The position numbers were made by a program, and so were the translations under genes. A DNA stretch of 64,000 nt from Minisyncoccota bacterium (GTDB taxonomy: Bacteria > Patescibacteriota > Minisyncoccia > JAHIHE01 > JAGLIN01). The notes under the pieces are model-generated. The model made no database searches. It worked only from the letters and a program-made list of their open reading frames with translations, and was not told the origin of the DNA. Within the stretch, counting starts at the first letter, position 1. Every line of letters starts with the position of its first letter. The stretch lies in NCBI GenBank assembly GCA_041661265.1, contig JBAZUT010000002.1, forward strand, positions 12,316 to 76,315. Direction: 5' to 3'. Of the stretch, positions 41,085 through 61,647 are shown in pieces.

Positions 41085-41681
41085 TCATTTGATTATCTCT
41101 TTTGCGACCTCTTGGTCGTATTTTTTCAGCTCCGCATCAAGAACCGCCTTTACCGAAGGATCGAATGTGTTGTTGTGATAGATCATCCTGGCGCCATCAA
41201 TGGTCTCCGACGCAATGATAATGGATGCGGCGAGAAATTTTCCCGCCTTTTCGATCCTCACGGATCTGTTGCTTATGATCTCTTCGAGCTCCGGCCTTTC
41301 CTTCAGCGAGCTCCATCTGACGACCATCCCTCCTTGATAAAGAGAATCTATCTGGGTGACGGCAACCATGGTAGTTCCGTGGGGATTGAATCCCAGTTGA
41401 TATTTGAAATCGTCCAGATAAAGCGCAATTACATATGCCAGCTCGGGCGGATAGCTCAGGAGAAGCATGGCAGTATCCACAAAATGCGCCGGATGATGAT
41501 CCTTGCTCAGCAGCCCCGTCATTGCCGCTATTCTCTTGGCCTCCGTTTCCTTCACGATCTTCAGCTGATTAGACTGTTCGCTGGCCCTGTGAACCGCCTT
41601 ATTTCTGAGCTCCAGGATTTTTTTGTTCAACGGCTCTTTTTTATTGCCGAATATCATATCTTTTATTCCCATTCTTTTCAC
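41085..41681 (-). CDS. Hypothetical protein (198 aa) downstream of the paralog array
   Basis: Intact ORF. No confident family assignment. Confidence 0.45.
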   Translation of the reverse strand: MKRMGIKDMIFGNKKEPLNKKILELRNKAVHRASEQSNQLKIVKETEAKRIAAMTGLLSKDHHPAHFVDTAMLLLSYPPELAYVIALYLDDFKYQLGFNPHGTTMVAVTQIDSLYQGGMVVRWSSLKERPELEEIISNRSVRIEKAGKFLAASIIIASETIDGARMIYHNNTFDPSVKAVLDAELKKYDQEVAKEIIK

Positions 41682-41753: not shown

Positions 41754-41788
41754 ATAAAAAAATCCCGCTGAATTTTTCAGCAGGAATT
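41754..41788 (-). terminator. Rho-independent terminator ending the paralog-array transcription unit
   Basis: Minus strand aattCCTGCTGAAaaaTTCAGCGGGattttttt lies ~25 bp after the last array gene. Confidence 0.6.
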
Positions 41789-41809: not shown

Positions 41810-42685
41810 CTAGCCGGATATCCACGTCATTCGAGGCCTTCGCGCGCCCTGTTCGTTTATTTTCCCATTATCTGACCCTCCGTTTTGAGTCAAAAATATT
41901 TGTCTTCCGCCTTTTTGTTTGCCTATTCCATATCCGTAGTGCGCCGGTTCAAAGAGTTCACTCTCCAATCTTCCGGATATTGTCAGACCGATAAAGAGCC
42001 TTCCGTCGCTCCCGATATATTGAGCGATCCCACACCCCTCAGGAGCAATAATGTTCATGCCTTTTGGCCCGGCCTTATCGCCCGTCGTCATTATCGTACA
42101 GCCTGCTTCCAGAAGCAGATCTTCAAAGCTTTTTGCTTCCTCTTTGCCCGACTCGTCACCGGCTGCGTCATTGTTCAATGCAGTTTCTTTACCACTGAGA
42201 CAGATTTCTCTTCCATTCATGAATATCCGGGTCTTTTCTTTGTCCGATCCATGGATCTCATTTTCATTTGAACCGGTTTCACCTTCGTCGTTTTCGCATT
42301 CTGTGCCCTTCTTTGTCCCCTTTTCTATCTCTTCCATTTTCCTTTCAGCCTTCTCAAGACTTGGTTTTTCTTGCCTTGAAAGCAGAACCTCCAAAACAGG
42401 CCACATGATCGAATCGATCTTGGGATATCCGTCAAGCTTGATGCTCCGGTCATTGTCCTCGCATCTTCCTGTGGCAAAGAGATATATCACCTTTCCCAGT
42501 TCATGCAATCCCTCTTCGAGGCTTGTTGCTGTTTCTCTGGATCCGAGATCGATCTCTTCAGTCAAAATATCCTGCTTCTGGAATATATAGTATTTTCCCT
42601 CTTCGGCTGCTTTTCCATACATCAAGAAAAGCCTCTCAAACGACTTTAGTAGCTCCTCGTCTTTCTCTTTTCCGATCTTTATCAT
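41810..42685 (-). CDS. Paralog-array member 10 (291 aa), type-B N-domain. C-terminus truncated or degenerate and lacks the family C-terminal NWYL(R/K)V domain
   Basis: The N-terminal 110 aa and leader are identical at DNA level to member 6 (45998..47272). It has an EGC(T) middle module. The sequence ends abruptly with GARRPRMTWISG. Confidence 0.7.
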   Translation of the reverse strand: MIKIGKEKDEELLKSFERLFLMYGKAAEEGKYYIFQKQDILTEEIDLGSRETATSLEEGLHELGKVIYLFATGRCEDNDRSIKLDGYPKIDSIMWPVLEVLLSRQEKPSLEKAERKMEEIEKGTKKGTECENDEGETGSNENEIHGSDKEKTRIFMNGREICLSGKETALNNDAAGDESGKEEAKSFEDLLLEAGCTIMTTGDKAGPKGMNIIAPEGCGIAQYIGSDGRLFIGLTISGRLESELFEPAHYGYGIGKQKGGRQIFLTQNGGSDNGKINEQGARRPRMTWISG

Positions 42686-42845
42686 ATCTTCGCTTCCTCC
42701 TTTTTCTTTGTGAGCATGATCAATACATTGATTTCAAGGTGCTTTCCTTTGAAGTCCCTCTCTGCCGTGCTGTTTATCTTAAACAGTATGGCGGAAAGAG
42801 AGGCAATGCCGGCTATTGTCGTTCAATAAGCGGGATTGCCGATGT
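42686..42845 (-). promoter_or_regulatory. Conserved array leader (copy 9): GGCAAT-loop-ATTGCC hairpin, CCTCTCTTTCCGCC...GGCAGAGAGGG hairpin, AAAGGAGGA RBS
   Basis: ~165-bp element repeated 9 times, immediately 5' of array genes. Confidence 0.55.
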
Positions 42846-43835
42846 TTAACTGATTACTAAGAACCAGCATTTTGACTTATCGCACACAGATACTATTCGT
42901 TTATCTTTTAGCTTTTCTTTCAGTTCACCTATGCCCTCTCCGCAAATATGTGATCCTTCCGGTGAGTACACCGTTTCTTTGTCATATTCATCTATAAACC
43001 CATTTTTCATAAGCGTTTCGCCACTTGAACAAAGCATATTCACAAGAGATGCTTCTGCATAATATTTCCAGCTGCAATGCTCGGAATCTATAGTTGCCAA
43101 TCCTTTGTTCAACCAAACAGACACCTCATCCAGATATTTTCCGGCATCTCTTCCGGCTATTTTTTTTCCTGTTTCAATATTAGACAAGATAACCGCATGG
43201 CCATAAACTACTTGGACCACTTTATATCCGAATTCTTTTAATGGAAATCGGGCATATGGCTTATCAGGGCTTCCTATGTGTATCTCGTCCCCGCCCTCCT
43301 TCGCCTTTGAGAATATATTTGTTCCTTCCGGAGCAAGAACGATCATGGATCCCGCTTCTATTCTCTTATTGGCGTCCTCTTCTCCTTCTTCCACTATATG
43401 CACAGTGCAGCCTTCGTCCAGCAGCAAGTCCTTCAAACTTTTTGCCTGTTTTATATTCTTGTCTGCGCCATCATGGACTTCTGTTATGCTCTTCTCAATT
43501 TCTTCAATGCTCGGAGCGTTTCCCTTCGAAAGCATTATCTGAAGTATCGGCCACATCATCGAATCGATCTTGGGATATCCGTCAAGCTTGATGCTCGGGT
43601 CGTTGTATTCCCAGATGCCGGTTGCGGCATAATAGATCACTCTTGCGAGTTCTCTCAGGCCTTCTTCCTCGCTTGATAGCGTTTCTCTTCCTTCAAGAGA
43701 TATGCCTTCCGCCACGATATCTTGGGGCAGGATCTTGTAATAGTTGCCTGCCTTGGCTCCTTTTTTGTACAGTTCAAGAAGCTCCCTCAGCGCTGCAAAA
43801 TAACCCTTATCTGTCTTTTCTTCGATCTTTATCAT
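42846..43835 (-). CDS. Paralog-array member 9 (329 aa), type-A N-domain (MIKIEEKTDKGYFAALRELLELYKKG...SIKLDGYPKIDSMMWP), EGC middle module, family C-terminal domain
   Basis: The N-domain is nearly identical to members 2, 4 and 5. The C-terminus reads ...GELKEKLKDKRIVSVCDKSKCWFLVIS. Confidence 0.75.
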   Translation of the reverse strand: MIKIEEKTDKGYFAALRELLELYKKGAKAGNYYKILPQDIVAEGISLEGRETLSSEEEGLRELARVIYYAATGIWEYNDPSIKLDGYPKIDSMMWPILQIMLSKGNAPSIEEIEKSITEVHDGADKNIKQAKSLKDLLLDEGCTVHIVEEGEEDANKRIEAGSMIVLAPEGTNIFSKAKEGGDEIHIGSPDKPYARFPLKEFGYKVVQVVYGHAVILSNIETGKKIAGRDAGKYLDEVSVWLNKGLATIDSEHCSWKYYAEASLVNMLCSSGETLMKNGFIDEYDKETVYSPEGSHICGEGIGELKEKLKDKRIVSVCDKSKCWFLVIS

Positions 43836-44003
43836 ATCTTCGCTTCCTCCTTTTTCCTTGTAAGCATGATCAATACATTGATTTCAAGGTGCTTTCCTTT
43901 GAAGTCCCTCTCTGCCATGCTGTTTATCTTAAACAGTATGGCGGAAAGAGAGGCAATCGGTCATCGTTTTTTTTCGATGGAATAATTGCCAAACATTTTA
44001 TTC
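43836..44003 (-). promoter_or_regulatory. Conserved array leader (copy 8); loop variant ggcaatcggtcatcgttttttttcgatggaataattgcc
   Basis: Identical to the leader at 52156..52323. Confidence 0.55.
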
Positions 44004-44861
44004 TTATTCGTAAACTTCTTTCAGGTACCACCTATTGGCGACTTTATCTTCTATAGATTCAATATCTCTATTGATGTTCTCCAACATAAATTTAAGCCTC
44101 TCTAATCCATGATTTTCTTTCGCTTTCTTATAGTTGAATTCTATTTTATCCAAACTCACTTTATGGATAAATCCCGCCTCGTCGCTTCCATGGTATATTG
44201 GAGTATTCATGTTAATCAGACATGTCGTCGGATCGAACAACCAGGTCCACTCACGAGAAAATATATAAGGCTCGCTTCCTTTTCGCGGCATTTTACTATT
44301 TCGATATTCGGTATTTATCCATTCAATTATTTCATTTATAAACCTTGCTCCATTTCTTATTTTTCTCCTTTCTTTTATTATTTCCGTCTCTACCTTTTCA
44401 ATTGTCGGCTTTTCTTCATTTGAAAGTAAGATTTTTAGCATTGGCCAGGAAATTGATTTTATCGGGATATAGCCATCTAGTTTAATACTGGGACAATTAT
44501 GTTCCCAATATCCGGTAATTTCAAAATATATCAGCTTTCCTAAGTTTTTTAATCCCTCCTCCACACTCTCTGCCCTATTTCTGCGCCGATAATTCGCAAT
44601 GGTCGAAATGAAATCTTCCGGTTTTCTTCTAAAATTGCTATGAAAAGGATCATCCGGCGAAAAAAGATACGCGGATTCCGGATCCCAATCGGCGCCATCA
44701 TATTTAGTTTTTTCTGCAAGATTAATCTTTTTCGTAAAAATATCTTCCCGCAAAAACAAAGGATATATCCCTTTTTCAGTTCCTTCACTAAACACTCTAA
44801 ATAGACTCTTCAATGCGACATGAATTCGCTCGTCATCTTTGTTTTCAATTTTCTTCACCAC
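44004..44861 (-). CDS. Paralog-array member 8 (285 aa), most divergent N-domain (with an inserted segment), different body
   Basis: Retains SIKLDGYIPIKSISWPMLKILLS and the tail NRWYLKEVYE. Confidence 0.65.
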   Translation of the reverse strand: MVKKIENKDDERIHVALKSLFRVFSEGTEKGIYPLFLREDIFTKKINLAEKTKYDGADWDPESAYLFSPDDPFHSNFRRKPEDFISTIANYRRRNRAESVEEGLKNLGKLIYFEITGYWEHNCPSIKLDGYIPIKSISWPMLKILLSNEEKPTIEKVETEIIKERRKIRNGARFINEIIEWINTEYRNSKMPRKGSEPYIFSREWTWLFDPTTCLINMNTPIYHGSDEAGFIHKVSLDKIEFNYKKAKENHGLERLKFMLENINRDIESIEDKVANRWYLKEVYE

Positions 44862-45016
44862 TGACTCCTCCTTCTTTTCAGATAAATATTCGCTATTTTG
44901 ATTTTAAGGTACTTTCCTATGAGTCCCTCGCTGTCATACTGTTCAGTCAAACAGTATGACGGAAAGAGAGGCAATTCCGTAAGTCTACTTTGCAACAAAC
45001 GGAATTGCCGATTTTT
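44862..45016 (-). promoter_or_regulatory. Conserved array leader (copy 7); perfect hairpin ggcaattccgt...acggaattgcc
   Basis: Seen in the sequence. Confidence 0.55.
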
Positions 45017-45823
45017 TTAGCACACTTTCAGATACCAAGACCCTGTATTATCCGTTATGGATATGGCCTTTTTGCCACTTAATTCGCTCTTCAGCTTTTC
45101 AAGGCCCATGATAAAACTTTTTGTATCGGTATATATCCAGAACCTGTTCCAGTCTTTCCCTATCTCCGCCACATCGCTTATGTCTATGAGTCCGTGCATT
45201 TGAAGAAAACCGATTCCGACTGAATTCCCCGGAAGCATCTTGAAAAGAGTATGATCTTCTTCCATGGACATCCAAACATATTTGCCCGACCCGAGTGACA
45301 CCGATTCTTCATAATGCTGCACAAGCCCTATAGCCGCCTGCAGAAGACTGTCGGCACCTGTCATGAAACAGCCTTTCTCGATCAGTAGATCCCATATGCT
45401 CTTTGTCTGCGTTCCGGTTATCTTCTCTACCGATACTTTTATGGGTGTACTTGTCACGCCATCCGCATCCTTGATCTTTTTTTCGATCTCTTTGATATCA
45501 GGCGGCTTGTCCTTCGAAAGCATCATCTCCAGAACAGGCCACATCATCGAATCGATCTTGGGATATCCGTCGAGCTTGATGCTCGGGTCATTGTATTCCC
45601 AGATGCCGGTTGCGGCATAATAGATCACTCTTGCGAGTTCTCTCAGGCCTTCTTCCTCGCTTGATAGCGTTTCTCTTCCTTCAAAAGATATGCCTTCCGC
45701 CATGATATCTTGGGGCAGGATCTTGTAATACATGCCTTCCTTGGCTCCTTTTTTGTACAGTTCAAGAAGCTCCCTCAGCGCTGCAAAATAACCCTTATCT
45801 GTCTTTTCTTCGATCTTTATCAT
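45017..45823 (-). CDS. Paralog-array member 7 (268 aa), type-A N-domain, body shared with member 1, C-terminal ...GKKAISITDNTGSWYLKVC
   Basis: Family N- and C-domains present. Confidence 0.75.
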   Translation of the reverse strand: MIKIEEKTDKGYFAALRELLELYKKGAKEGMYYKILPQDIMAEGISFEGRETLSSEEEGLRELARVIYYAATGIWEYNDPSIKLDGYPKIDSMMWPVLEMMLSKDKPPDIKEIEKKIKDADGVTSTPIKVSVEKITGTQTKSIWDLLIEKGCFMTGADSLLQAAIGLVQHYEESVSLGSGKYVWMSMEEDHTLFKMLPGNSVGIGFLQMHGLIDISDVAEIGKDWNRFWIYTDTKSFIMGLEKLKSELSGKKAISITDNTGSWYLKVC

Positions 45824-45997
45824 ATCTTCACTTCCTCCTTTTTCCTTGTAAGCATGATCAATACATTGATTTCAAGGTGCTTTCCTTTGAAGTCCCTCGC
45901 TGTCATGCTGTTTATCTTAAACAGCATGGCGGAAAGAGAGGCAATTCCGGCTATTGTCTTTCAATAAGCGGGATTGCCAAATATTATTTTCACTGGA
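45824..45997 (-). promoter_or_regulatory. Conserved array leader (copy 6)
   Basis: Seen in the sequence. Confidence 0.55.
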
Positions 45998-47272
45998 TCA
46001 GATTATCCGTACAGCCGTGCGAACGCCATATTTTTCATCAGTGTTTGACATCAGATGACTCACATGCATGTACACAAGACGGCTATTTTCGTGAAATCCC
46101 AAAGAATAAACGGAATCAGGCGAGTTTTTTCCGACAATACCCAAAATATATGGAGTATGCATACCGCCGATATGGGCATCTATCAATTCATTCGTGTTTT
46201 CCAGATGGATAATAGCAAGAGTGATCTGGTCCTCTGCGGATATTCCATCTTCTCCCTGATATGCGTCTGCCAAAAGAGATCCTAAATATCTCTTTGGACT
46301 CATCCCGCACTCAAGCTGCTTTCGTCCGCCAATAGTCTGACCGCCGCCCTTTGCCGGAAGGCACGCAAGATCCTCAACCAGAAGAACATTGAATGCGGAG
46401 CCGCTTGCCAATAACTCTTTTTTGGTTTTATTGGAACCGCCTCTTTGGCGATAGCTCACATTGCCATTCATATCCGCTTCTCTTTCAGTGCTCCAGATAA
46501 GAATCGGCTTTTCTGAATCAATATATAGTTTCCGGTTCTGTTCATCGTGATTTTGTTTGGCTCCGAACAATATTTCATTTGCGTCATGCCGCAGGATCAA
46601 TCTCCCGAATATCTCGACAAGATCGTTGAATTTCATGCCAAATGGAACGATCAGCAATTTGTTGAATCCCTGATCCCACTTAAACTTGAAAAAATCCCCG
46701 TTTTCTTTTATCATATCCGCTATTTCTTCAAATTCCGGGAAAGAGTATTCCTTTCCATCTATGCCCTTTATGCCCGATTCTCCGTTTGAGAGTATTCTGA
46801 TCACTCCCGTCTTTCGGAATATTTCCTTTTGGTTCTCATATTGCCGTTTCAGCTCTTCATAGCCGAACTCCGTAGTCTTTACAGACGTTTCTTCAGTTAT
46901 TCTCTTTTGCGTCAGCTCATTTAATATTTTTTCCGCTGCTTTAAGATTTGGAGATTCTCTCCTTGAAAGCAACAGTTCGAGTATCGGCCACATGATCGAA
47001 TCGATCTTGGGATATCCGTCAAGCTTGATGCTCCGGTCATTGTCCTCGCATCTTCCTGTGGCAAAGAGATATATCACCTTTCCCAGTTCATGCAATCCCT
47101 CTTCGAGGCTTGTTGCTGTTTCTCTGGATCCGAGATCGATCTCTTCAGTCAAAATATCCTGCTTCTGGAATATATAGTATTTTCCCTCTTCGGCTGCTTT
47201 TCCATACATCAAGAAAAGCCTCTCAAACGACTTTAGTAGCTCCTCGTCTTTCTCTTTTCCGATCTTTATCAT
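45998..47272 (-). CDS. Paralog-array member 6 (424 aa), type-B N-domain fused to a distinct ~300-aa C-terminal region, possibly enzymatic (Gly-rich LPAKGGGQTIGG, HIGGMHTPY)
   Basis: The N-domain and leader are identical to member 10. The rest is unrelated to the other members, and the family C-terminal tail is absent. Confidence 0.7.
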   Translation of the reverse strand: MIKIGKEKDEELLKSFERLFLMYGKAAEEGKYYIFQKQDILTEEIDLGSRETATSLEEGLHELGKVIYLFATGRCEDNDRSIKLDGYPKIDSIMWPILELLLSRRESPNLKAAEKILNELTQKRITEETSVKTTEFGYEELKRQYENQKEIFRKTGVIRILSNGESGIKGIDGKEYSFPEFEEIADMIKENGDFFKFKWDQGFNKLLIVPFGMKFNDLVEIFGRLILRHDANEILFGAKQNHDEQNRKLYIDSEKPILIWSTEREADMNGNVSYRQRGGSNKTKKELLASGSAFNVLLVEDLACLPAKGGGQTIGGRKQLECGMSPKRYLGSLLADAYQGEDGISAEDQITLAIIHLENTNELIDAHIGGMHTPYILGIVGKNSPDSVYSLGFHENSRLVYMHVSHLMSNTDEKYGVRTAVRII

Positions 47273-47436
47273 ATCTTCGCTTCCTCCTTTTTCTTTGTGA
47301 GCATGATCAATACATTGATTTCAAGGTGCTTTCCTTTGAAGTCCCTCTCTGCCGTGCTGTTTATCTTAAACAGTATGGCGGAAAGAGAGGCAATGCCGGC
47401 TGCATTATTTGCAGAACAAATTGCCTGATATGTAAT
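47273..47436 (-). promoter_or_regulatory. Conserved array leader (copy 5)
   Basis: Identical over its length to the leader at 42686..42845 except for the GGCAAT-hairpin loop. Confidence 0.55.
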
Positions 47437-48819
47437 TTACAGCACTCTTAGGAACCAGCCATTTTTTGATCCGTCATATACGGATTCTACGCGCCTGCCT
47501 TTCAGCTTTTCCCTTAATTCTCCTATTTTCTTTCCGGAAAAAGCGCTGACGCTCCATGTGAATAGCTCCGTCCATGGGACATGCACCCTGCTCTTCTTGT
47601 CCACCAATCCGGCCTCTTTGAACGGGTTGATATTCTTGACATCAAGATAAACCAAACCTTTTTTAGGATGATATTTCCAATGCAGCTGTTTAATATCTTC
47701 TGTCCAGATTATAATCTCCAGATCATCCAGAAATTTTCCAGCCTCTGTTCCTATCTGCATGTCGCGAGGCGCAATTCGTTTCAGATAGCATTTCTTCGAG
47801 CTTCCTGATCCGTTTGCACTATATCCATATTTTTTCGGCTCATATAGCTCTTCTCCGATCAGCTCTCCATATTTTTCCAGCGCTATCAATTGCCTGCCAT
47901 CACTGCCGACGTAATGAGCTATTCTGCATGCATTCGGTGCAATAACGATCAGATCGTCACCGTCCATTTCGATCTCACATCCCTCGCCAATAAGAAGATC
48001 TTCCAGCGATACTGCTTTTTTTTCTTCGACCTGTTTTTCGGTTACATCATTGGAATTGCCTGAATCTTTCTCGGCCTCGATTATCTTTGTCTCAATGTCC
48101 GGTTCAATTTTCCGCAAACGGATTTCATTTCCGCTTTCTCCGCTTATCTTATATCCATGCTGCATTAATGGATAGATGGCATATGTTTCATTGTCTGGTC
48201 TTGTAAATAAGATCTCATGCCCCGCATCTTTATACTGTCCGGACACTTTATTACCCACGGGTGGAACAACGATAACATCTGCCGCCCTTATATCCCGATG
48301 CGGATCTTCCTCTCCCGCTTTAACATTCGATAAAGTACAACCCTCTTGTAACAACAGGCATATAAGCCTTTCCGATTGTTCTTTGCCGGTTTCCTTAACA
48401 TTCAACGTCTCTGTGTCCTTCTTCTGTTCATCTTTGGTTTTGTTTTGACCGCCTTCTATTTGCCTGATCTCTGTCTCAACCATCTCAATACTTGGCATCG
48501 CTCCGCCTCTGGAAAGCATAATTTCGAGCACCGGCCAGAAGAACACTTTGATCGGCGGATATCCATCAAGCTTGATGCTCGGGTCGTTGTATTCCCAATT
48601 TCCGGTCATGGCATAATAGATAGCCTTTCCAAGTTCTCTCAGGCCTTCTTCCTCGCTTGATAGCGTTTCTCTTCCTTCAAGAGATATGCTTTCTGCCACG
48701 ATATCTTGGGGCAGGATCCTGTAATAGTTGCCTTCCTTGGCTCCTTTTTTGTACAGTTCAAGAAGCTCCCTCAGCGCTGCAAAATAACCCTTATCTGTCT
48801 TTTCATCGATCTTTATCAT
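47437..48819 (-). CDS. Paralog-array member 5 (460 aa), type-A N-domain, two tandem EGC middle modules, family C-terminal domain
   Basis: The middle module is duplicated (LLQEGCTLSNV... and LLIGEGCEIEMD...). The C-terminus reads ...GKKIGELREKLKGRRVESVYDGSKNGWFLRVL. Confidence 0.75.
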   Translation of the reverse strand: MIKIDEKTDKGYFAALRELLELYKKGAKEGNYYRILPQDIVAESISLEGRETLSSEEEGLRELGKAIYYAMTGNWEYNDPSIKLDGYPPIKVFFWPVLEIMLSRGGAMPSIEMVETEIRQIEGGQNKTKDEQKKDTETLNVKETGKEQSERLICLLLQEGCTLSNVKAGEEDPHRDIRAADVIVVPPVGNKVSGQYKDAGHEILFTRPDNETYAIYPLMQHGYKISGESGNEIRLRKIEPDIETKIIEAEKDSGNSNDVTEKQVEEKKAVSLEDLLIGEGCEIEMDGDDLIVIAPNACRIAHYVGSDGRQLIALEKYGELIGEELYEPKKYGYSANGSGSSKKCYLKRIAPRDMQIGTEAGKFLDDLEIIIWTEDIKQLHWKYHPKKGLVYLDVKNINPFKEAGLVDKKSRVHVPWTELFTWSVSAFSGKKIGELREKLKGRRVESVYDGSKNGWFLRVL

Positions 48820-48983
48820 ATCTTCACTTCCTCCTTTTTCTTTGTGAGCATGATCAATACATTGATTTCAAGGTGCTTTCCTTTGAAGCCCCTCTCTGCC
48901 ATGCTGTTTATCTTAAACAGTATGGCGGAAAGAGAGGCAATTCCGGCTATTGTCTTTCAATAAGCGGGATTGCCAAAATGTTT
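48820..48983 (-). promoter_or_regulatory. Conserved array leader (copy 4)
   Basis: Seen in the sequence. Confidence 0.55.
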
Positions 48984-49823
48984 TTATTCGCAAATCCTTA
49001 AATACCAGTTTTCCTCATTTTCATCATATACCGACACTATGCGCCTGCCATTCAATATTTTTTTCAAATCGTATATGTCACAGGATTTATCGGCGTTCGC
49101 CGGAAATGATATTTTTTCCGTCACATCGATAAACCCGCCATCCCTGAAAATATTCGCATCTCCTCTTGCATGCATGTCCACCAGACAACTTTTGACATCA
49201 TATGACCATTTCCAGTCAACTTCGTCCTTGAATCCTGTACGCTCTCGCATCCATGCAAAAACCTTGTCAAGAAATTCCCCGGCATCTCTTGTTTCTATAC
49301 TTGCATAGTGAAAGCACACAGGATATATCATCTTTCTGGCTTCCATCACCGTTTCTTCAAAAACACTTTCATCCAAACCGCCGAACATCAGGACAAGCTC
49401 TTTCAACAGCTGTTCTTTGTTCTTTTTTCCGCCTTCTGCCGTCTTTTCGCCCCTACCTTTTTTTTCCCCGGCCTCTTTTATTTTCTCTTCTATTCTGTCG
49501 ATGTCCGGAGCCTCTTGCCTGGACAGCATCATTTCCAGAACAGGCCACATCATCGAATCGATCTTGGGATATCCGTCGAGCTTGATGCTCCGGTCGTTGT
49601 CTTCGCAAATTCCGGTGACTGCGCGATAGGCGATCTTTCCCAATTCATGCAATCCGTCTTCAATGCTTGCTGCAGTTTGCCTGGATCCGGGATCGATCCT
49701 CTTCGCCACAAAATCTTCCGGTAAGAATTTATAATATTTCCCGTCTTTGGCTCCGTTTTTATACAACTCAAACAAATTCTTGAGCGATCTGAATATTTCA
49801 TCATCCGTCTTCTTTTCGGTCAT
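48984..49823 (-). CDS. Paralog-array member 4 (279 aa), divergent N-domain, family C-terminal domain. Translationally coupled to member 3 (18-bp gap, own RBS, no leader copy)
   Basis: MTEKKTDDEIFRSLKNLFELYKNG...SIKLDGYPKIDSMMWPVLEMMLS. The C-terminus reads ...GRRIVSVYDENEENWYLRICE. Confidence 0.7.
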   Translation of the reverse strand: MTEKKTDDEIFRSLKNLFELYKNGAKDGKYYKFLPEDFVAKRIDPGSRQTAASIEDGLHELGKIAYRAVTGICEDNDRSIKLDGYPKIDSMMWPVLEMMLSRQEAPDIDRIEEKIKEAGEKKGRGEKTAEGGKKNKEQLLKELVLMFGGLDESVFEETVMEARKMIYPVCFHYASIETRDAGEFLDKVFAWMRERTGFKDEVDWKWSYDVKSCLVDMHARGDANIFRDGGFIDVTEKISFPANADKSCDIYDLKKILNGRRIVSVYDENEENWYLRICE

Positions 49824-49841
49824 TATCCTGCCTCCTCAAAT

Positions 49842-50921
49842 TCATTCCTCGCATACTCGCAAATACCAATTGCCCCTTCTGTCCAGCACGGACAGAACTT
49901 TTTTTCCTTTCAGCTCCTCTTTTAACCCGTTCATACCATAGGCGAAGCCTTCTATCGAATAGTATGCCCTGCCTGTTACCGTCGTGATATTCTTGAATTC
50001 AACCGCTTCTTTTTCATCTATGAAACCGCCATTTTCGAATAATGCAACGCCTGCATGATCATTCGGTATCATTTTTATGAGATTCTTTTCTCTGTTGGAA
50101 GCCCATAATATCATGCCCGTCACATTATCAAATTTCAGTTCTCTCGCATATGCCTTCGCAAAATTTATCACTTCATCGATGAATTTTTCCGCATCTCTTT
50201 GGGCTGATCGGTCATGTCCGGCCTCAATCCTTCTCAGATGGACTTCGTTTCCGTGATATTTGTTTCTTATTTTGTAGCCGAATTCTTTTAACAGGTATTC
50301 ATAAAATATCCTATCCGGCCTTTCTATGCGGATCCTTACTCCATCATCTTTGCATAAAGCAAGTATTTTGCATCCTTCCGGCGCGATCACGATCAAGTCG
50401 CCCGCCTTGATGTCCTTGCTTGGATTCTTGCTTTCTTGCCTTAATGTCAGCACGGTACAGCCTATGTTGATCAATATACCCTTCAGGTCTTTTGTTTGCG
50501 CTATATTCGACCACTTTCCGGATATCTCAGCTTCGGATCCCCTTGCCCCCGTGTCAGCTTGAGCCGACCCGAATATTTCTTCGATCCTTCCGATGCTTGG
50601 CGCTTCTGCCTTTGAAAGCAGAACCTCAAGCGCGGGCCAAAAGAATATCTTGATAGGCGGATAGCCGTCTATCTTGATGCTTGGATCGTTGTGCTCCCAG
50701 GTACCGGTCGCATAAAAATAGATCGCTTTCCCAAGCTCTCTAAGCCCCTCTTCGGCGCTTGCTGCGGTTTTTCTGGATGCGAAAGAAATATTCTCTGCCA
50801 GAACATCATCCTGCAGAAATAAGTAATATCTTCCCTCCCCAGCTTCTCTCGCATACAGTTCAAAAAGTTTCTTGAACGATTTGAACAGTTCTTCGTCCGT
50901 TTTCTTTCCGATCTTCATCAT
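49842..50921 (-). CDS. Paralog-array member 3 (359 aa), divergent N-domain, EGC-type middle module, family C-terminal domain
   Basis: MMKIGKKTDEELFKSFKKLFELY...SIKIDGYPPIKIFFWPALEVLLS. The C-terminus reads ...GKKVLSVLDRRGNWYLRVCEE. Confidence 0.75.
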   Translation of the reverse strand: MMKIGKKTDEELFKSFKKLFELYAREAGEGRYYLFLQDDVLAENISFASRKTAASAEEGLRELGKAIYFYATGTWEHNDPSIKIDGYPPIKIFFWPALEVLLSKAEAPSIGRIEEIFGSAQADTGARGSEAEISGKWSNIAQTKDLKGILINIGCTVLTLRQESKNPSKDIKAGDLIVIAPEGCKILALCKDDGVRIRIERPDRIFYEYLLKEFGYKIRNKYHGNEVHLRRIEAGHDRSAQRDAEKFIDEVINFAKAYARELKFDNVTGMILWASNREKNLIKMIPNDHAGVALFENGGFIDEKEAVEFKNITTVTGRAYYSIEGFAYGMNGLKEELKGKKVLSVLDRRGNWYLRVCEE

Positions 50922-51081
50922 CTCTGTTTCCTCCTTCTTCTTCCATGAACAAAACTGATACTTTTGATTTCAAGGTGCTTTCCAAAAAGTCCCTCGCTGT
51001 CATGCTGTTTGGTTGAACAGTATGACGGAAAGAGAGGCAATACCGCTTGTTTTTTTCACAAAAGGGATTGCCGATATTTAT
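50922..51081 (-). promoter_or_regulatory. Conserved array leader (copy 3)
   Basis: Seen in the sequence. Confidence 0.55.
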
Positions 51082-52155
51082 TCAGCAAACTTTCAAAAAC
51101 CATCCATTATTCGATCCATCATATACAGATAATATGCGCTTGCCCCAAAGCTTTTCTTCCAATTCGCTGACGCTTTTTCCCGTATCTGAAAATAAGCCCC
51201 AGGAAACTATATTCAGCAAAGAAACTTTCACTCTTTCTTTTTTGTCAATGAATCCGGCTTCTGTCAGCCCCTTGGTGTCCTTAAACTCGATATATACCAA
51301 AGCTTTTTTGGCATTATATGTCCAATACAGGTCTCCTTTGAATCCCCGTTGCCCCCACAGAAATAATTCCAGATCATGCAGGAACTCTTTTGCGTCCCAA
51401 GTTTGAAGTTTGTGCAAACGGATCTCCTTTTCGTTGATCTCTTCTGATATTTCGTACTCGTCTCCTCCAACATAATATTCAACATTTGTCCCATTTGATC
51501 TAAAGATAATTATTCCAATCCCATGGATCGAAACCAATTTGAATATTTTTCCTCCGCTAGGAGCCAGCACGCTCAGGTCTTCCTCCGCATTGCTTCTTCT
51601 CGGATGATCTTTTCCTTTTATAGCATTTATCCGGCACCCTTCATTGGTCAAAAAATATGTCAAGGCATTATTCGGCACTTTTCTGGTTTTATTTTCAAGC
51701 ACCGGCTCGACTATTTTTTCCTCTTTGCCCGTTTCTCCGTCTATAACCTTCTCTGTTTCAACGGGAGCTATTTCGTCTTCTTTTGCGCCCTTTTCAATTT
51801 CTTTTATCTTTGCCTCGATATCATCAACGCCCTGTATTTTTGTTTTCGAAAAAATGATCTCCAGAACAGGCCACATCATCGAATCGATCTTGGGATATCC
51901 GTCGAGCTTGATGCTCCGGTCGTTGTATTCCCAGATGCCGGTTGCGGCATAATAGATCACTCTTGCGAGTTCTCTCAGGCCTTCTTCCTCGCTTGATAGC
52001 GTTTCTCTTCCTTCAAGAGATATGCCTTCCGCCACGATATCTTGGGGCAGGATCTTGTAATAGTTGCCTGCCTTGGCTCCTTTTTTGTACAGTTCAAGAA
52101 GCTCCCTCAGCGCTGCAAAATAACCCTTATCTGTCTTTTCTTCGATCTTTATCAT
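51082..52155 (-). CDS. Paralog-array member 2 (357 aa), type-A N-domain, EGC middle module, family C-terminal domain
   Basis: N-domain nearly identical to member 9. The C-terminus reads ...GKRILSVYDGSNNGWFLKVC. Confidence 0.75.
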   Translation of the reverse strand: MIKIEEKTDKGYFAALRELLELYKKGAKAGNYYKILPQDIVAEGISLEGRETLSSEEEGLRELARVIYYAATGIWEYNDRSIKLDGYPKIDSMMWPVLEIIFSKTKIQGVDDIEAKIKEIEKGAKEDEIAPVETEKVIDGETGKEEKIVEPVLENKTRKVPNNALTYFLTNEGCRINAIKGKDHPRRSNAEEDLSVLAPSGGKIFKLVSIHGIGIIIFRSNGTNVEYYVGGDEYEISEEINEKEIRLHKLQTWDAKEFLHDLELFLWGQRGFKGDLYWTYNAKKALVYIEFKDTKGLTEAGFIDKKERVKVSLLNIVSWGLFSDTGKSVSELEEKLWGKRILSVYDGSNNGWFLKVC

Positions 52156-52323
52156 ATCTTCGCTTCCTCCTTTTTCCTTGTAAGCATGATCAATACATTG
52201 ATTTCAAGGTGCTTTCCTTTGAAGTCCCTCTCTGCCATGCTGTTTATCTTAAACAGTATGGCGGAAAGAGAGGCAATCGGTCATCGTTTTTTTTCGATGG
52301 AATAATTGCCATTACATTGTTAT
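52156..52323 (-). promoter_or_regulatory. Conserved array leader (copy 2)
   Basis: Identical to 43836..44003. Confidence 0.55.
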
Positions 52324-53181
52324 TCACACCACTTTCAAATACCAGTTACCTTTTTTGTCCAATATGGACATGATCTTCTTTCCACTCAATTCGGTCTTCA
52401 GCTTTTCAAGCCCGTATATAAAGCTTTTTTTATCCGAATAAATGATGATCCTATCCCATTTTTCAATGATCTCCGGAATCTGGCTTTTCTCGATCAAGAA
52501 GCCTGTCTTTTCAAGCATCTCGATCAATCTGGCATTATCCGGGATCATTTTATAAAGAGTCCGGTCTTTCTGTGCCGATACCCATACCCACTTATAGATC
52601 CCGATTCCCAATGCTTCCTCGTGGGCATTTGCGTTTTTTATAACCAAGCCGAGTATCGCTCCGGAATCCATAACGGTGCAGCCCTGTACGAGCGACCGGT
52701 CGAATGAAATATCCGATCGGATGTCATTTATTTTTATTACGGGTATGCTTTCGACTTTCTTCTTGTCTTCTTCGATCTCGTTGATCTTCCTGTTGATCTC
52801 CTTGATCTTCCTGCCGATCTTTTCAATTTCAACTTTTTTGTCCTTCGAAAGCATCATCTCCAGAACCGGCCAGGTCATTGATTCGATCGGCGGATAGCCG
52901 TCGATCTTGATGCTCGGGTCGTTATATTCCCAAAACCCGGTAGCCGCGAAATAAACGGCTTTTCCCAATTGACTCAGTCCATCTTCAAGGCTCATCGCAG
53001 TTTCTCTGGATCCGGCATCAACCTTTTCCGCCAAAATATCATTTGGTAAAAAGATGTAATATTTCCCATTCTTGGCTCCTTTAACATATTTCTCAAAGAG
53101 ATTGCTCAGTCCCTTAAACAGATTGGCATCTTTTTTCTTTTCGATCTTCAACATCGCATATTCCTCCTCTGTCTTTTCCAA
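52324..53181 (-). CDS. Paralog-array member 1 (285 aa), divergent N-domain, body related to member 7, family C-terminal tail
   Basis: ...SIKIDGYPPIESMTWPVLEMMLS. The C-terminus reads ...GKKIMSILDKKGNWYLKVV. Confidence 0.75.
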   Translation of the reverse strand: MEKTEEEYAMLKIEKKKDANLFKGLSNLFEKYVKGAKNGKYYIFLPNDILAEKVDAGSRETAMSLEDGLSQLGKAVYFAATGFWEYNDPSIKIDGYPPIESMTWPVLEMMLSKDKKVEIEKIGRKIKEINRKINEIEEDKKKVESIPVIKINDIRSDISFDRSLVQGCTVMDSGAILGLVIKNANAHEEALGIGIYKWVWVSAQKDRTLYKMIPDNARLIEMLEKTGFLIEKSQIPEIIEKWDRIIIYSDKKSFIYGLEKLKTELSGKKIMSILDKKGNWYLKVV

Positions 53182-53354
53182 TAGTCTGAACTAGTATCTT
53201 CATTTCAAGGTGCTTTCCAAAAGTCCCTCGCTGTCATACTGTTCGCTCTGAACGGTCTGACGGAAAGAGAGGCAATGCCGGACGCCGCTTTCATGGCTGA
53301 CCGGAATTGCCGAAATGTTCTATATATTTTCTTTTTAAGCTCAGAATGAGCATT
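53182..53354 (-). promoter_or_regulatory. Conserved array leader (copy 1), between the AAA+ ATPase gene and the first array gene
   Basis: Contains the ggcaatgccggacgccgctttcatggctgaccggaattgcc hairpin variant. Confidence 0.55.
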
Positions 53355-55172
53355 TTATGTTTTCACTCCCGAGCCTGCACCATTCAACTCGGCTTCTGCA
53401 TCATTCAATATCTTCTCCCAATTCTCCGGCCGAAGATGCTTTGAGCTTCCTCTGATCGCAAGCACGATCTGCTTGTTTATTTCCTGCGGATCAAGGCTTC
53501 TTTCCCATTCCTCAATGGCCTGGTAAAGATTCGCTTCTCTTACGGAAGCGCCTCCTTCTCTGGCGGATATCCTATCCGCTTCAAGGACCATCCATTCCAC
53601 ATCCGCTCCGGTAACATATTTCTTTTCCACCAGCAGACGGGCAAATTTCGAAAAGTCCCTGATCTCGGTCGGGATCCCGTATCGTGCGAACATCACGCTG
53701 AATATGTTCGGATATTCGTTCTCGATCGGCAAACCGAACGGAATTATTTCATCGGATCTGCCTTTTCTCTTATAGGCCGGATCGACAAGATCGGGCCGGT
53801 TGGTGATCCTCACCCAGATAACCTTTCCTCTTATGTCAGGCCTGGAACAGAATTCGAATTTCTTCTGCCTCAGGCGGTTGGAAACTCCGGAATCGCCGTT
53901 ATAAGCGTCGCGGCCTCCTTCCGACTGGTCGGCTTCGTCCTCGACGACGATCACCGGCGCAAGGTCTTCCAGGCAGGCAAGTATCATCTGCATATACCTT
54001 TCGGACTCTCCGACATACATATTGCGTGGATTTTGTATCTCAACGAAATTGAATCCGCATTCAAATGCCCAGCACTCGAATAGGAAGGTCTTTCCGGTTC
54101 CCGGAGGACCCGCCGCAAGTATGCCCATCGGAACACGCCTCATCATCCCTGCCAGAATATTGTCATTCACTTCGCGAAGATACCTCTTGACGTTTTCTTT
54201 TCCGCCGAAATAATTGAATCCCCACTTGGGAATCTTAATTTTTACGCGGTCACCGAATTCTTTTTCAAGGATCGTCTTTTTTTCCTCCTTTATCAGGTCC
54301 AGGCTCAAAGGGACCTTGCTGTAGGAAGCTTGCTCATAAATGCCTTTGATCTGTTTTACGGACAAGCCCGACGTGCAGATGCCCAGCATTTGCGCGTTTA
54401 CATTGCTTTCCACATTTATCCTTTTTTGCCCGATAAGTTCCTGCCAAAGCTTGACTCTTTCCTCCATATTGGGTTTTGGGATCCGAATGGCGGGGATATC
54501 TGTCTGAGTGGACCTCAATGGTTCGGCCAGATCACCTATATTCGGCGTGATCAATATCATAGTGTTCCCTGTCGCGCCAACATCCCTGTCCTGAGCCAAT
54601 CGCTCCAAAGTTTCCACGACCAGACGGTCCTGAATGCTCTGATGAGCCGATGCGGCCGGAACCAGGTTGTGGGCGAAAGATATTATCACGACTTTTTTCA
54701 GGATATTTCCTGAAATATCAAGTTTTTCCGCCGTCTTCTTTTCGATCCTTGAAACCAGAAGATTGTCCCTCATGATCCTGGCAAGCAGCGGCAAAACGAT
54801 CTCCGGCGTCTTTCCTCCGATCAATTCGTCGATGGAAAGCTCATTCGCGGATCTTTGCTGCACTCCGATCGCCTTATTTTGCGCTGCGGTTGTCCGGGGC
54901 GCCATGCTTTGATCTTCGAGCAGATATTGCTGCCTGAATATTTTCTCCATATCTTCATTGGGAAATCGTATCCCTGTCGAAATGGAATAGAGAATAACCA
55001 TCCTCTGCCTGAAATATTCCTCTGCAAGCTCCTGATCCAGGGTGACATAGTCGCCCTTCATGTTCTTCTGAAAATCTCCTGTATTCCCCCATATAACAAG
55101 AAGGTTTGTTCCGAGAGCTAAATTTCTCATCAGCTCATCTTGCCACACCATAACATCATCTCCTTTTTGCAT
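53355..55172 (-). CDS. Classical-clade AAA+ ATPase (605 aa) with ~330-aa N-terminal domain of unknown function
   Basis: Walker A GPPGTGKT, Walker B VIVVEDEADQ, and a second region of homology ITNRPDLVDPAYKRKGRSD carrying Arg fingers. Confidence 0.85.
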   Translation of the reverse strand: MQKGDDVMVWQDELMRNLALGTNLLVIWGNTGDFQKNMKGDYVTLDQELAEEYFRQRMVILYSISTGIRFPNEDMEKIFRQQYLLEDQSMAPRTTAAQNKAIGVQQRSANELSIDELIGGKTPEIVLPLLARIMRDNLLVSRIEKKTAEKLDISGNILKKVVIISFAHNLVPAASAHQSIQDRLVVETLERLAQDRDVGATGNTMILITPNIGDLAEPLRSTQTDIPAIRIPKPNMEERVKLWQELIGQKRINVESNVNAQMLGICTSGLSVKQIKGIYEQASYSKVPLSLDLIKEEKKTILEKEFGDRVKIKIPKWGFNYFGGKENVKRYLREVNDNILAGMMRRVPMGILAAGPPGTGKTFLFECWAFECGFNFVEIQNPRNMYVGESERYMQMILACLEDLAPVIVVEDEADQSEGGRDAYNGDSGVSNRLRQKKFEFCSRPDIRGKVIWVRITNRPDLVDPAYKRKGRSDEIIPFGLPIENEYPNIFSVMFARYGIPTEIRDFSKFARLLVEKKYVTGADVEWMVLEADRISAREGGASVREANLYQAIEEWERSLDPQEINKQIVLAIRGSSKHLRPENWEKILNDAEAELNGAGSGVKT

Positions 55173-55190
55173 TTTTTTTCTTTCCTTCCA

Positions 55191-55322
55191 TTATCCGCAC
55201 ATCCCTTCATAGTTCACCTTCACTTCTATCCCGACTGCCTGCAAGATATCCCGCAGAAAATGAGAATCGTCATGAGAGCTGGCATTGATCTCTACGCGTC
55301 CTTCAAAAACACTGACGCTCAT
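55191..55322 (-). CDS. Tiny protein (43 aa), FEG...LQAVGIEV motif, paralog of the adjacent 69-aa gene (DUF2997-like?)
   Basis: The internal ATG at 55322 lies right after the stop of the upstream 69-aa gene. The ORF-track 85-aa version overlaps that gene in another frame, so its N-terminus is rejected. Confidence 0.35.
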   Translation of the reverse strand: MSVSVFEGRVEINASSHDDSHFLRDILQAVGIEVKVNYEGMCG

Positions 55323-55326
55323 AAAT

Positions 55327-55536
55327 TCACGCGCGGATCTTTTCTTTTCCGACGACAGGTTCTTTTTCTTTTTCTTTTCTTCTTCCGTTCTGGACATCTG
55401 TTTCAACTCCCATTTTTTCAAGCAATGACCTGATTTTAAGCTCTTCATAGTCGCACGTTTTGTTCGGAAATCCTTCGAAATCCATCTCGATCTTCCCGTC
55501 TTTTAGCCTGATAGCAACCTTTCTCATTTCATTCAC
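55327..55536 (-). CDS. Small protein (69 aa), DUF2997-like pattern (IRLKDGKIEMDFEGFPNKTCDYEELKIRSLLEKMGV)
   Basis: Overlaps the upstream 170-aa gene by 8 nt, suggesting translational coupling. The assignment to DUF2997 is from memory of that family's consensus. Confidence 0.45.
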   Translation of the reverse strand: MNEMRKVAIRLKDGKIEMDFEGFPNKTCDYEELKIRSLLEKMGVETDVQNGRRKEKEKEPVVGKEKIRA

Positions 55537-56041
55537 CAGCTTTCATCCCGACGACATTGAAGCTTTGTCTGCCGTCGCCTATCGAATATTTCTCAGTCGG
55601 TTCGATCCTGTATCCGAGAATTTCAAGAGCGGCTTTCGCGGCTTCGAGAAGATATGCATCCGTGAACATCTTCTTGAGGCGCATTATCTCTTCTTTCCAT
55701 TCGCTCCTGTATTCGTCAGCAGCGAACCGGACCACTCCGTTCTTCATTGTTATTCCCAAACCATTTGGAAGCTTTGAAGTTTTCAGCGCGCCGATGATCT
55801 TCTGACCGCCAAAGGACTTGGTTTCATTGCGGCCAAAGTCGCAAATATGGTCCGTGATCTCGACTCCCTGGCTTTCCAAGGTTTTGAAAGCGCCCTGTAT
55901 GCATTCCTCGATGACATCATCAAGCTCCAGATCTTCTATGATCTTTGCGAATTTGGGGTCTTTCAGCCGAAGCTCGTTCAGCATTTCATTCATGTTCTCC
56001 GTTGCGCTCAATTGAGCGTTCATCCATACGATCTTACTCAT
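55529..56041 (-). CDS. Hypothetical protein (170 aa) coupled to the DUF2997-like gene (possibly DUF1257-like partner)
   Basis: Intact ORF. Its C-terminal AAKAALEILGYRIEP weakly resembles DUF1257/Ycf35. Weak inference. Confidence 0.45.
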   Translation of the reverse strand: MSKIVWMNAQLSATENMNEMLNELRLKDPKFAKIIEDLELDDVIEECIQGAFKTLESQGVEITDHICDFGRNETKSFGGQKIIGALKTSKLPNGLGITMKNGVVRFAADEYRSEWKEEIMRLKKMFTDAYLLEAAKAALEILGYRIEPTEKYSIGDGRQSFNVVGMKAGE

Positions 56042-57729: not shown

Positions 57730-57853
57730 ATCGCACCTCCGATTCGATCCGATATTCGATATATATTTTGTTCCTTATTCCATTCATCATTCCATAAAAA
57801 GTTATGCGGGGTTAAGCGCGAGCTCAACCCCGGCATGTTCTCATTTCAGTTCT

Positions 57854-59413: not shown

Positions 59414-59417
59414 ATTC

Positions 59418-60557: not shown

Positions 60558-60796
60558 TTTTTCACCTCTTCAACATTATTCATTTCTCTGATCCTTACAG
60601 AGCATATCTTTCTTTCTGTCACATCATTCTATACACCTCGAGTTGTTAAAGTACGTTCCTCAGGATAACATTGATCTTCGCTATCCTGCTGAAAGGCAAT
60701 CACGTTTACATTGATTATCTTTCAGCAATCAACGAGATCATAGATTGAAAAATATTTGGCGGAACAGTTCGTTCTGCTCCGCCGCCTGTTTGTTTC

Positions 60797-61453: not shown

Positions 61454-61647
61454 CTTTTAAAAGAACTTTTTTCTTCATTGCGCTTCCGACAATATCCGTT
61501 TAATGAATATTGACCTTCAAATATAGGACTTCTATCCTATATTGTCAAGCTCAAAAACGTCATCAGACACCCCTATTCCAAACCCCTGAAATAATGTGCT
61601 TTCATGGCTGATCCGGCCAATGAACATTTAAAAAAATCCGCTTGTTT

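Follow-up and report, generated by a model that had tools for sequence, protein, structure and literature searches.

The minus strand of the window, by which we mean the whole 64,000-nucleotide stretch of contig JBAZUT010000002.1 analysed here, carries at positions 41810-53181 an array of ten co-oriented paralogous open reading frames (ORFs), numbered m1 to m10 from the most upstream member, directly behind the gene of a CDC48/PAN-like AAA+ ATPase (Table 1). The array comes from a metagenome-assembled genome (MAG) of Candidatus Paceibacterota in the Candidate Phyla Radiation (CPR), and its proteins match the NCBI entries MFA6096343.1 (corresponding to m2) and MFA6096339.1 (locus tags WC788_017xx-01800). 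Every unit follows the plan of a structured leader of ~110 nucleotides (nt), an N-domain of ~105 codons and a divergent body, and a spacer of 155-174 nt precedes every member but m4. A preliminary description of this DNA had drawn attention to long identical 5' segments in non-adjacent members; its numbering agrees with ours (member 10 is m10, 41810-42685; member 6 is m6, 45998-47272), and the origin of these segments is the subject of this work.

The N-terminal domain of ~105 residues is common to all ten members, each of which is a complete ORF with its own GGAGG Shine-Dalgarno sequence, start codon and full N-domain. After a charged linker, most members continue with zero to two modules that we call X and a C-terminal domain, Y, that ends in ...SVYDxxxNWYLKVC. 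Three members depart from this body plan, namely m6 with a quite different body, m8 with an insertion in the N-domain and a body of its own, and m10, which ends after one X. In m8 (44400-44861), the insertion comprises ~45 residues (KTKYDGADWDPESAYLF...) inside the N-domain; the gene starts with GTG, and its body is unlike those of the other members. The N-termini (MIKIEEKTDKGYF...) are charged or hydrophilic and are predicted to run straight into a helix, although no dedicated signal-peptide predictor was used. Only 18 nt without a leader (49824-49841) separate m3 and m4, and an equally tight junction is found in the related contig L003 (1146-1166); because this junction is kept in a related genome, m4 is probably translationally coupled to m3. 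A canonical intrinsic terminator closes the array after m10, no terminator-like site of comparable stem and T-run lies between members, and a promoter scan of the leaders found no consistent sigma-70-like site, which together suggests that the array is one transcription unit running on from the upstream operon.

The leaders consist of hairpin 1, hairpin 2 and a near-invariant GCACCTTGAAA box. Hairpin 1 combines a GGCAAT/ATTGCC base with a variable self-complementary apex, hairpin 2 is ~20 bp long, and the box holds a CCTT (CCUU in the RNA) that is able to pair with the AAGG of the Shine-Dalgarno sequence. A small third hairpin lies between the box and the Shine-Dalgarno sequence, with ATCAATGTATTGAT in most copies and other palindromes in m1, m3 and m8. 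Across 15 leaders taken from five sources, pairing holds in 93.9% of cells, compared to 46-52% when the partners are slid, and nine pairs show double-sided changes; the observed values were reached in 0 of 500 shuffles. According to a covariance model, the window holds exactly nine copies, each within the array, and the same model detects further copies outside its training set, upstream of distant family members (47.5 bits in contig L012, 33 bits in L009, L010 and L011). Elsewhere, leader copies lie at L012 490-595, L009 5318-5421, L013 90-187 and 1001-1096, and L016 57-163 and 1956-2055. Rfam 15 holds no matching leader family, the sole match being a chance one to SCARNA7 far under the gathering score. 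The leader may be an element of translational control or of RNA processing.

Two pairs of members share long exact tracts of leader and N-domain coding sequence, m6 with m10 over 416 bp at a distance of 4.6 kb and m2 with m9 over 394 bp at a distance of 8.3 kb. Near-identity of m6 and m10 extends beyond the exact tract (96.7% over 459 nt, reaching about codon 108), and across codons 1-105, the N module, nucleotide identity is 97% for this pair, 96% for m2-m7, 96% for m2-m9 and 95% for m7-m9. The N module of m5 is 86-88% identical to those of m2, m7 and m9, all remaining pairs are 65-76% identical, and m2 and m4 stand at ~72% despite an exact patch of 67 bp. From hairpin 2 to the start codon, six members (m2, m5, m6, m7, m9, m10) are nearly identical, and from the ATG onward they fall into two groups, type A (m2, m5, m7, m9, with leaders 94-100% identical) and type B (m6, m10). 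The two types share ~70-72% over the N module and 75-78% over the BLAST-aligned leader and N-domain; the leader of type-B genes is of type A, and the change of type falls at the start codon. The mosaic is finer still in m10, whose hairpin 1 is of the m5/m7 type though its coding part is of the m6 type, and in m5, where the last third of the N-domain departs from type A and resembles m3. Tract ends vary between events and sit where the homology of the paralogues decays, upstream at the start of the leader element and downstream at the boundary of N-domain and linker, which fits homology-dependent conversion and not site-specific recombination.

Most of these identities had been seen in the preliminary description, with some details that need adjusting. 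The block of more than 400 bp that it placed at 42400-42815 and 46990-47405 exists and measures 416 bp, but the second pair of coordinates is 3-4 nt off: as written, 119 of 416 bases match, and with the second block shifted by -3 the count is 415 of 416. The block does cover the leader, and near-identity does reach almost the ~110 codons then given, yet its exact part includes only codons 1-96. The bodies of m6 and m10 are unrelated as had been said (no BLASTP match at E<=1e-3), and the type-A module is near-identical in m9, m7, m5 and m2 as described, with N modules at 95-96% (m5 at 86-88%) and leaders at 94-100%. The leaders at 43836..44003 and 52156..52323, reported as identical, are nearly so (159 of 168 positions match) and not fully, because their distal 12 nt differ. 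What had been missed is that exact identity of m2 and m9 reaches 238 nt into the coding region.

A Sawyer-type permutation test (2000 permutations of the 229 polymorphic columns of the shared 5' module) singled out uninterrupted identical runs of 212 sites for m6-m10 and 192 sites for m2-m9 (both p<0.0005, pairwise and global), several further pairs reached pairwise p<=0.002, and differences cluster at tract edges (permutation p<0.0005). No permutation produced a run as long as either of the two, which excludes chance.

Two related contigs, L001 (JGI 3300006224, another sample) and L003 (Logan SRR22387900), allowed us to compare paralogues with orthologues. L001 is colinear with window positions 53400-50321 at 86.8% identity and comprises the ATPase end and the orthologues m1', m2' and m3', and L003 carries m3' and m4' at 86%. 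At the nucleotide level, N modules of orthologues are 89% (m1), 87% (m2 against L001), 91% (m3) and 87% (m4 against L003) identical. Identity of orthologues is flat along the units, with 84-91% in leaders, 87-91% in N modules and 83-90% in bodies, and this flat profile (83-91% overall) indicates that the 5' module is under no special nucleotide constraint. Within the N module, the near-identical paralogues of the window are closer to each other (95-97%) than orthologues are between genomes (87-91%). Passages in PMC6053082 and PMC2720389 give such closeness of paralogues as the standard signature of concerted evolution, and a passage in PMC8223754 treats gene conversion as an accepted homogenising mechanism in prokaryotes.

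The bodies show the reverse picture. Compared to their orthologues, the m1 body (against L001) is 83% identical at the amino acid (aa) level, the m2 body 75% and the m3 body 84-86%, and the nearest bodies inside the array are m1-m7 at 41.5%, m3-m9 at 36% and m2-m5 at 31.5%; m2 and m9 share 25% in their bodies, and m2 and m7 have no detectable match there. Judged from these sequences, the diversity of the bodies is old and kept between genomes. Bodies and modules also group differently, the former into (m1, m7), (m3, m9) and (m2, m5) and the latter into (m2, m5, m7, m9) and (m6, m10). Since the m2 orthologue of L001 is about equally far (85-87%) from all type-A copies, type A probably originated in the m2 lineage and was passed to the other members once the two genomes had separated. 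Tandem arrays recur in contigs L013, L015 and L016, but the modules there are not homogenised, so that conversion looks sporadic and not built into the system. Our literature search found no paper joining CPR, gene conversion and paralogues.

Taken together, recent RecA-type gene conversion between members is the likely reason why the 5' module has become uniform within two subgroups of the array. The preliminary description had likewise proposed recent gene conversion between non-adjacent members, and this part holds well: paralogous modules are 95-100% identical compared to 83-91% for orthologues, the bodies behind them share 25-40% of aa or are unrelated, and differences concentrate at tract edges. 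Its alternative wording of cassette exchange does not suit an array that has no layout of expression site and silent cassettes, no recombinase among the neighbouring ORFs scanned and no one fixed site at which the tracts end. The idea of recombination-driven diversification is not supported either, as it is the 5' module that was homogenised and the bodies that are old and conserved between genomes. The sequences show the identity tracts, their statistical significance, the closeness of paralogues, the incongruent segments and the conserved linkage to the ATPase, whereas the route of recombination, the direction in which modules were copied and the selective advantage are our inference. Intrachromosomal, non-reciprocal repair of the RecA type would copy the 5' module of one member over that of another, with the homology for strand invasion supplied by the conserved leader and N-domain coding sequence. 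The resulting tracts of ~400 bp would stop in or before leader hairpin 1 on the upstream side and before the low-complexity linker after the N-domain on the downstream side. Repeated events of this kind would homogenise type A (m2, m5, m7, m9) and type B (m6, m10) and place one leader on both groups while leaving the old bodies untouched, the net outcome being concerted evolution of the module common to all. Homogeneity might matter if each body must fit one shared ATPase module and one control by the leader RNA.

Several observations weigh against gene conversion as the explanation. The permutation null assumes exchangeable sites, which the conserved leader breaks for the weaker pairs, and for m6 and m10 alone, conversion of the 5' module is indistinguishable from replacement of the body behind a duplicated module. 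The remaining ones concern the assembly, about which the preliminary description had itself rightly been cautious: exact repeats of 394-416 bp are longer than short reads and k-mers, and collapse, bubble-popping or a chimeric path could have made the blocks or the module-body joins. An independent assembly of the same strain (JGI Ga0172379) provides contig L004, which equals window positions 46220-43906 (99.96%, with one mismatch at 46169 in the m6 body), and contig L006, which equals 51748-48827 (100%), so that the two assemblies differ by 1 nt in 5.2 kb, outside the repeats. The runs from the m6 body over m7 and m8 to the m9 leader and from the m2 body over m3 and m4 to the m5 leader are thereby confirmed, and L004 traverses the m7 5' module with its 14-17 private differences. 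However, these short-read contigs of 2-3 kb terminate close to or inside the long repeats, L006 in the m5 leader and L004 after 86 nt of the m2/m9 repeat, and because they break there, the module-body joins of m5, m6, m9 and m10, plus that of m2 in this strain, rest on one 249.7-kb contig; the orthologous m2 join is present in L001. Graph assembly is, in addition, able to smooth out minor differences between near-identical repeats, which may make "100%" a slight overstatement, and related arrays elsewhere are known only on contigs of 2-3 kb. Still, an artefact of assembly is unlikely, given that independent contigs reproduce the repeated modules at 99.96-100%, that L001 keeps the order of ATPase end, m1, m2 module on m2 body, and m3, and that there are many shorter non-identical tracts, which an assembler would not create. 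Moreover, a mis-join would swap the bodies behind the modules and alter their pairing but would not abolish the near-identical modules. Because short-read assembly fails at exact repeats of this length (~400 bp), public MAG catalogues probably under-represent arrays of this family and hold them in an incompletely assembled form.

Among the biological alternatives, recent duplication of the 5' module with new bodies attached by illegitimate recombination or domain shuffling is the least improbable of all rivals, though improbable nonetheless. At least one foreign fusion has occurred, because the m6 body comes from a separate CPR family that has another N-terminus elsewhere, and all tracts end near a domain boundary. 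Yet the bodies of m5, m7 and m9 are genuine family bodies with X and Y that are 30-41% identical (aa) to those of m2, m1 and m3, and several independent swaps to old family bodies at slightly different breakpoints would be needed; the 5' edges that vary by event and the internal 67-bp patch of m4 are better explained by conversion. Programmed cassette switching that varies the expressed protein, either integron-like at the leader hairpins or from donors similar to pilS or vls, would account for a co-oriented array with conserved fronts and variable backs, and the conserved base and variable apex of hairpin 1 are superficially like attC. We consider it very improbable nevertheless: ten complete ORFs that each have their own Shine-Dalgarno sequence and start codon leave no single expression site, tract ends do not fall at one fixed site, the N-termini are hydrophilic and not signal peptides, and the hairpin element, whose GGCAAT/ATTGCC base is not the attC core, stands 5' of genes, also before single-copy family members, and is absent after m10. 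There is also no integrase or recombinase among the neighbours; no integrase was found by Pfam among 30 other ORFs of the window, which lie to either side of the array and comprise those of at least 150 aa bar five of 150-180 aa, and the nearest transposase-like ORFs, an IS200-like one (6302-7237) and a DDE one (15598-16272), are >25 kb away. Readings as integron, shufflon or antigenic variation were dropped in view of the complete ORFs, the lack of a recombinase and the tract ends at no fixed site. Hardly conceivable, finally, is that selection alone maintains the identities by constraining every nucleotide through leader RNA structure and N-domain function. The leader is indeed structured and conserved with covariation, and conservation of the proteins lies in the N-domain, but leaders and N modules of the window are separated from their orthologues in L001 or L003 by differences of 9-16%, the same as bodies, the modules of m1, m3, m4 and m8 reach just 65-76% identity with those of other members, and the ~400-bp identities take in all synonymous sites.

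Table 1. Coordinates of the array members, leaders, identity tracts and neighbouring genes in the window.
Feature	Position	Strand	Remarks
Leader before m1	53201..53311	-	covariance model 90.9 bits
Leader before m2	52200..52310	-	covariance model 106.6 bits
Leader before m3	50966..51072	-	covariance model 113.1 bits
Leader before m5	48864..48974	-	covariance model 109.1 bits
Leader before m6	47317..47425	-	covariance model 107 bits
Leader before m7	45868..45978	-	covariance model 107.2 bits
Leader before m8	44900..45009	-	covariance model 112.4 bits
Leader before m9	43880..43990	-	covariance model 106.6 bits
Leader before m10	42730..42840	-	covariance model 104.3 bits
m1, first member	52324..53181	-	N-domain + Y; likely start MLKIEKK at 53154; L001 orthologue
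m2, type-A 5' module	51082..52155	-	N-domain + linker + X + Y; MFA6096343.1; L001 orthologue
m3	49842..50921	-	N-domain + X + Y; orthologues in L001, L003 and L002
m4, sole leaderless member	48984..49823	-	N-domain + Y; 18-nt gap after m3
m5, type-A 5' module with diverged 3' third	47437..48819	-	N-domain + two X + Y
m6, type-B 5' module and body from another CPR protein family	45998..47272	-	
m7, type-A 5' module	45017..45823	-	body nearest m1 (41.5% aa); junctions seen in independent contig L004
m8, divergent	44004..44861	-	N-domain insertion of ~45 aa, distinct body
m9, type-A 5' module	42846..43835	-	body nearest m3 (36% aa)
m10, type-B 5' module, last member	41810..42685	-	X module only, no Y domain
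Exact 416-bp tract, m10 copy	42399..42814	-	129 nt leader + codons 1-96
Exact 416-bp tract, m6 copy	46986..47401	-	maximal exact match to m10 copy
Exact 394-bp tract, m9 copy	43598..43991	-	156 nt leader + codons 1-79
Exact 394-bp tract, m2 copy	51918..52311	-	identical to m9 copy
Exact 67-bp tract in m4	49534..49600	-	shared with m2
Exact 67-bp tract in m2	51860..51926	-	shared with m4
Canonical intrinsic terminator, closes array after m10	41763..41785	-	10-bp stem + T7
CDC48/PAN-like AAA+ ATPase, directly upstream of array	53355..55172	-	linkage kept in distant relatives
Three small conserved genes upstream of ATPase	55191..56041	-	A 55529-56041 (170 aa), B 55327-55536 (69 aa), C within 55191-55448 (<=85 aa)
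PurA-like adenylosuccinate synthetase	56362-57729	-	well below NCBIfam cut-offs
519-aa protein	57854-59413	-	unannotated
Ser/Thr kinase	59418-60557	-	PD-T4-6/MkoA-like PADLOC matches
NadD-like adenylyltransferase	60797-61453	-	
Protein resembling pyruvate-kinase barrel	61648-62568	-	

The proteins themselves belong to a very small family. A profile search with the N-domain retrieved 51 cluster representatives among 1.84 billion, with the domain always N-terminal. Searches of Pfam, NCBIfam and PADLOC with all ten array proteins gave nothing meaningful, Pfam matched none of ten distant family members, a genome-contig search with the N-domain alignment found no relative, and a homology search with alignment A4 had no match. 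Two contigs from the metagenome scan, L007 and L008, had matches of 25 residues with no ORF on the matching strand and were treated as spurious. An AlphaFold model of full-length m2 from a 10-sequence alignment reached a predicted local distance difference test score (pLDDT) of 67.7, and Foldseek found nothing significant for it in the PDB (ribosomal and PCNA noise). The model of the N-domain from a 35-sequence alignment reached a pLDDT of 85.9 and a predicted template modelling score (pTM) of 0.78, and its top 50 Foldseek matches in the PDB are all protein-kinase domains, though weak ones (E 0.6-2.2, query TM-score 0.35-0.60). Comparisons of sequence profiles lend no support to kinase homology: Pkinase did not match the N-domain at E<=1, the hhalign probabilities for an alignment with the kinase encoded nearby were 1.5% and 0.1%, and no kinase was among the PDB sequences retrieved with an N-domain profile. 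The domain has a length of only ~105 aa and lacks an N-lobe, and neither an HRD nor a DFG motif occurs in the 50-member alignment. Distant members of the N-domain family read like a degenerate kinase C-lobe (FPPEKIEI..., LGVTLYHLATGESE...; an example of the N-domain in the window is 51841-52155). We treat the idea of a kinase-C-lobe-like docking module, suggested by the structural model, as a lead only.

Apart from m6, 28 proteins are homologous to the m6 body (45998-46900); most of them seem to come from CPR-type metagenomes, and one is annotated as Candidatus Gottesmanbacteria. Proteins of this family are ~360 aa long, all eight homologues that were read lack the N-domain, and six full-length ones start with a different, possibly coiled-coil N-terminus, which argues that at least one array member arose by fusion of the N-domain to a foreign body. 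Of the two m6-body loci looked up (contigs L017 and L019), one lies near an MmeI-like restriction-modification gene and one near AbiEii and a type IV secretion system coupling protein.

Wherever the context is available, the N-domain gene lies downstream of a CDC48/PAN-like ATPase gene that is itself preceded by three small conserved genes. Orthologues of this module were found in L009/L010, L012 and L015, and N-domain genes follow it directly in the window, L009/L010 and L015 and lie on the same contig in L012. The ATPase and small genes together occupy 53355-56041 (-) in the window, 1829-5294 in L009, 9383-11758 in L012 and 1-1233 in L015. The small proteins are ~170, 68 and 66-85 aa long, the third ending in ...EGMCG or ...WCG, and Pfam and NCBIfam had no match for proteins A, B and C. 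A possible likeness of proteins A and B to DUF1257 and DUF2997 was confirmed neither by Pfam at E<=10 nor by NCBIfam, and our literature search came upon these domains in brief mentions only.

Upstream of the ATPase module, an operon extends over 56362-62568 (-), and one of its genes encodes a kinase; no kinase was seen next to the ATPase module in L009. Just past the array terminator lie a DNA methyltransferase-like gene (39366-40610, +) and an unannotated ORF of 198 aa (41085-41681, -). Farther away, the window encodes a Tc-toxin/Rhs-like protein of 2453 aa (7940-15301, -) with SpvB, TcdB-midN, FG-GAP, RHS-repeat and Laminin_G_3 matches, which is large for CPR and is flanked by the two transposase ORFs (6302-7237 and 15598-16272).

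The mechanism at work in the array is a textbook one, and our finding is a clean and well-controlled further example of it and no new principle; the gene family, the leader RNA and the linkage to the ATPase are more interesting than the conversion itself. The value of the case is that a structured and conserved leader RNA without an Rfam entry is part of what was homogenised and that a very rare, unannotated family tied to an AAA+ ATPase module makes a concrete, testable and uncharacterised system. Genomes of Candidatus Paceibacterota are generally small, and in such a CPR setting 11.4 kb for one family are probably a sizeable investment. Tentatively, and with more doubt than belief in the combination as a whole, we can picture an undescribed system of five parts, to date known only from CPR-like metagenomic lineages, of which the array would be the expanded, recombining arm. 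These parts would be the CDC48/PAN-like AAA+ ATPase, the three small proteins (~170, 68 and 66 aa), one to ten N-domain proteins, their ~105-aa front end as a catalytically dead, kinase-C-lobe-like docking domain, and the leader RNA before each N-domain gene. If this were true, conversion would keep docking module and leader uniform so that unrelated bodies stay compatible with one ATPase and one regulator, and the repertoire of bodies, one of them borrowed from a family with defence or mobile context, might serve host interaction or defence in an episymbiont with a presumably small genome.

Compared to integron arrays, the locus shares co-oriented ORFs parted by imperfect hairpins with a conserved base and variable apex. 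However, no IntI was found, the base is GGCAAT/ATTGCC and not RYYYAAC/GTTRRRY, the would-be cassettes are all paralogues, and the hairpin element belongs 5' of the gene (one before m1, none after m10) and also precedes single-copy relatives. In Neisseria pilE/pilS and Borrelia vlsE, partial cassettes that are silent and lack promoters donate variable segments to a single expression site; our array resembles these systems in gene conversion within a clustered family, but here it is the conserved segment that is copied and all members are complete genes. The Mycoplasma vlp, vsp and vsa families are tandem paralogues with a near-identical 5' untranslated region and N-terminal block and divergent bodies; their conserved block consists of a lipoprotein signal peptide, and expression switches through promoter poly-A tracts or site-specific inversion. 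In contrast, the N-terminus in our array is hydrophilic, there are no homopolymer switches and no invertase, and the genes apparently form one transcription unit with a single terminator.

Polymorphic toxin loci (Rhs, CdiA-CT, LXG) with orphan C-terminal modules are similar in joining a conserved N-terminal part to very different bodies, in recombination at the boundary and in their tandem modules. The array members differ from such orphans in having a full N-domain and start and no 5' truncation, and their conserved part is only ~105 aa long. No ORFs that could be immunity genes lie between members, where the spacers of 155-174 nt are filled by the leader RNA, and the bodies of all ten members have no Pfam, NCBIfam or PADLOC match and no detected toxin domain. 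Homologues of the m6 body lie elsewhere near restriction-modification, AbiEii and type IV secretion genes.

Also close to our array are the bacterial families that undergo gene conversion, such as tufA/tufB, the rRNA operons and the PE/PPE genes of Mycobacterium. PE/PPE genes offer a further parallel, as their proteins carry a conserved N-terminal helical module of ~100 aa on variable C-terminal bodies, and the same system encodes a CDC48-like AAA+ ATPase (EccA). Unlike in that system, no type VII secretion genes are seen among the neighbours of the array, and its proteins have no Pfam, NCBIfam or PADLOC match. Passages of PMC6053082, PMC8223754 and PMC12046097 describe how gene conversion makes the members of bacterial multigene families evolve in concert. 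The array shares with such families that paralogues are closer than orthologues, that tracts of a few hundred bp have sharp edges and that transfer is non-reciprocal within the chromosome, and it differs from them in that only leader and N-domain are homogenised, in two subgroups of the array, and in its CPR host.

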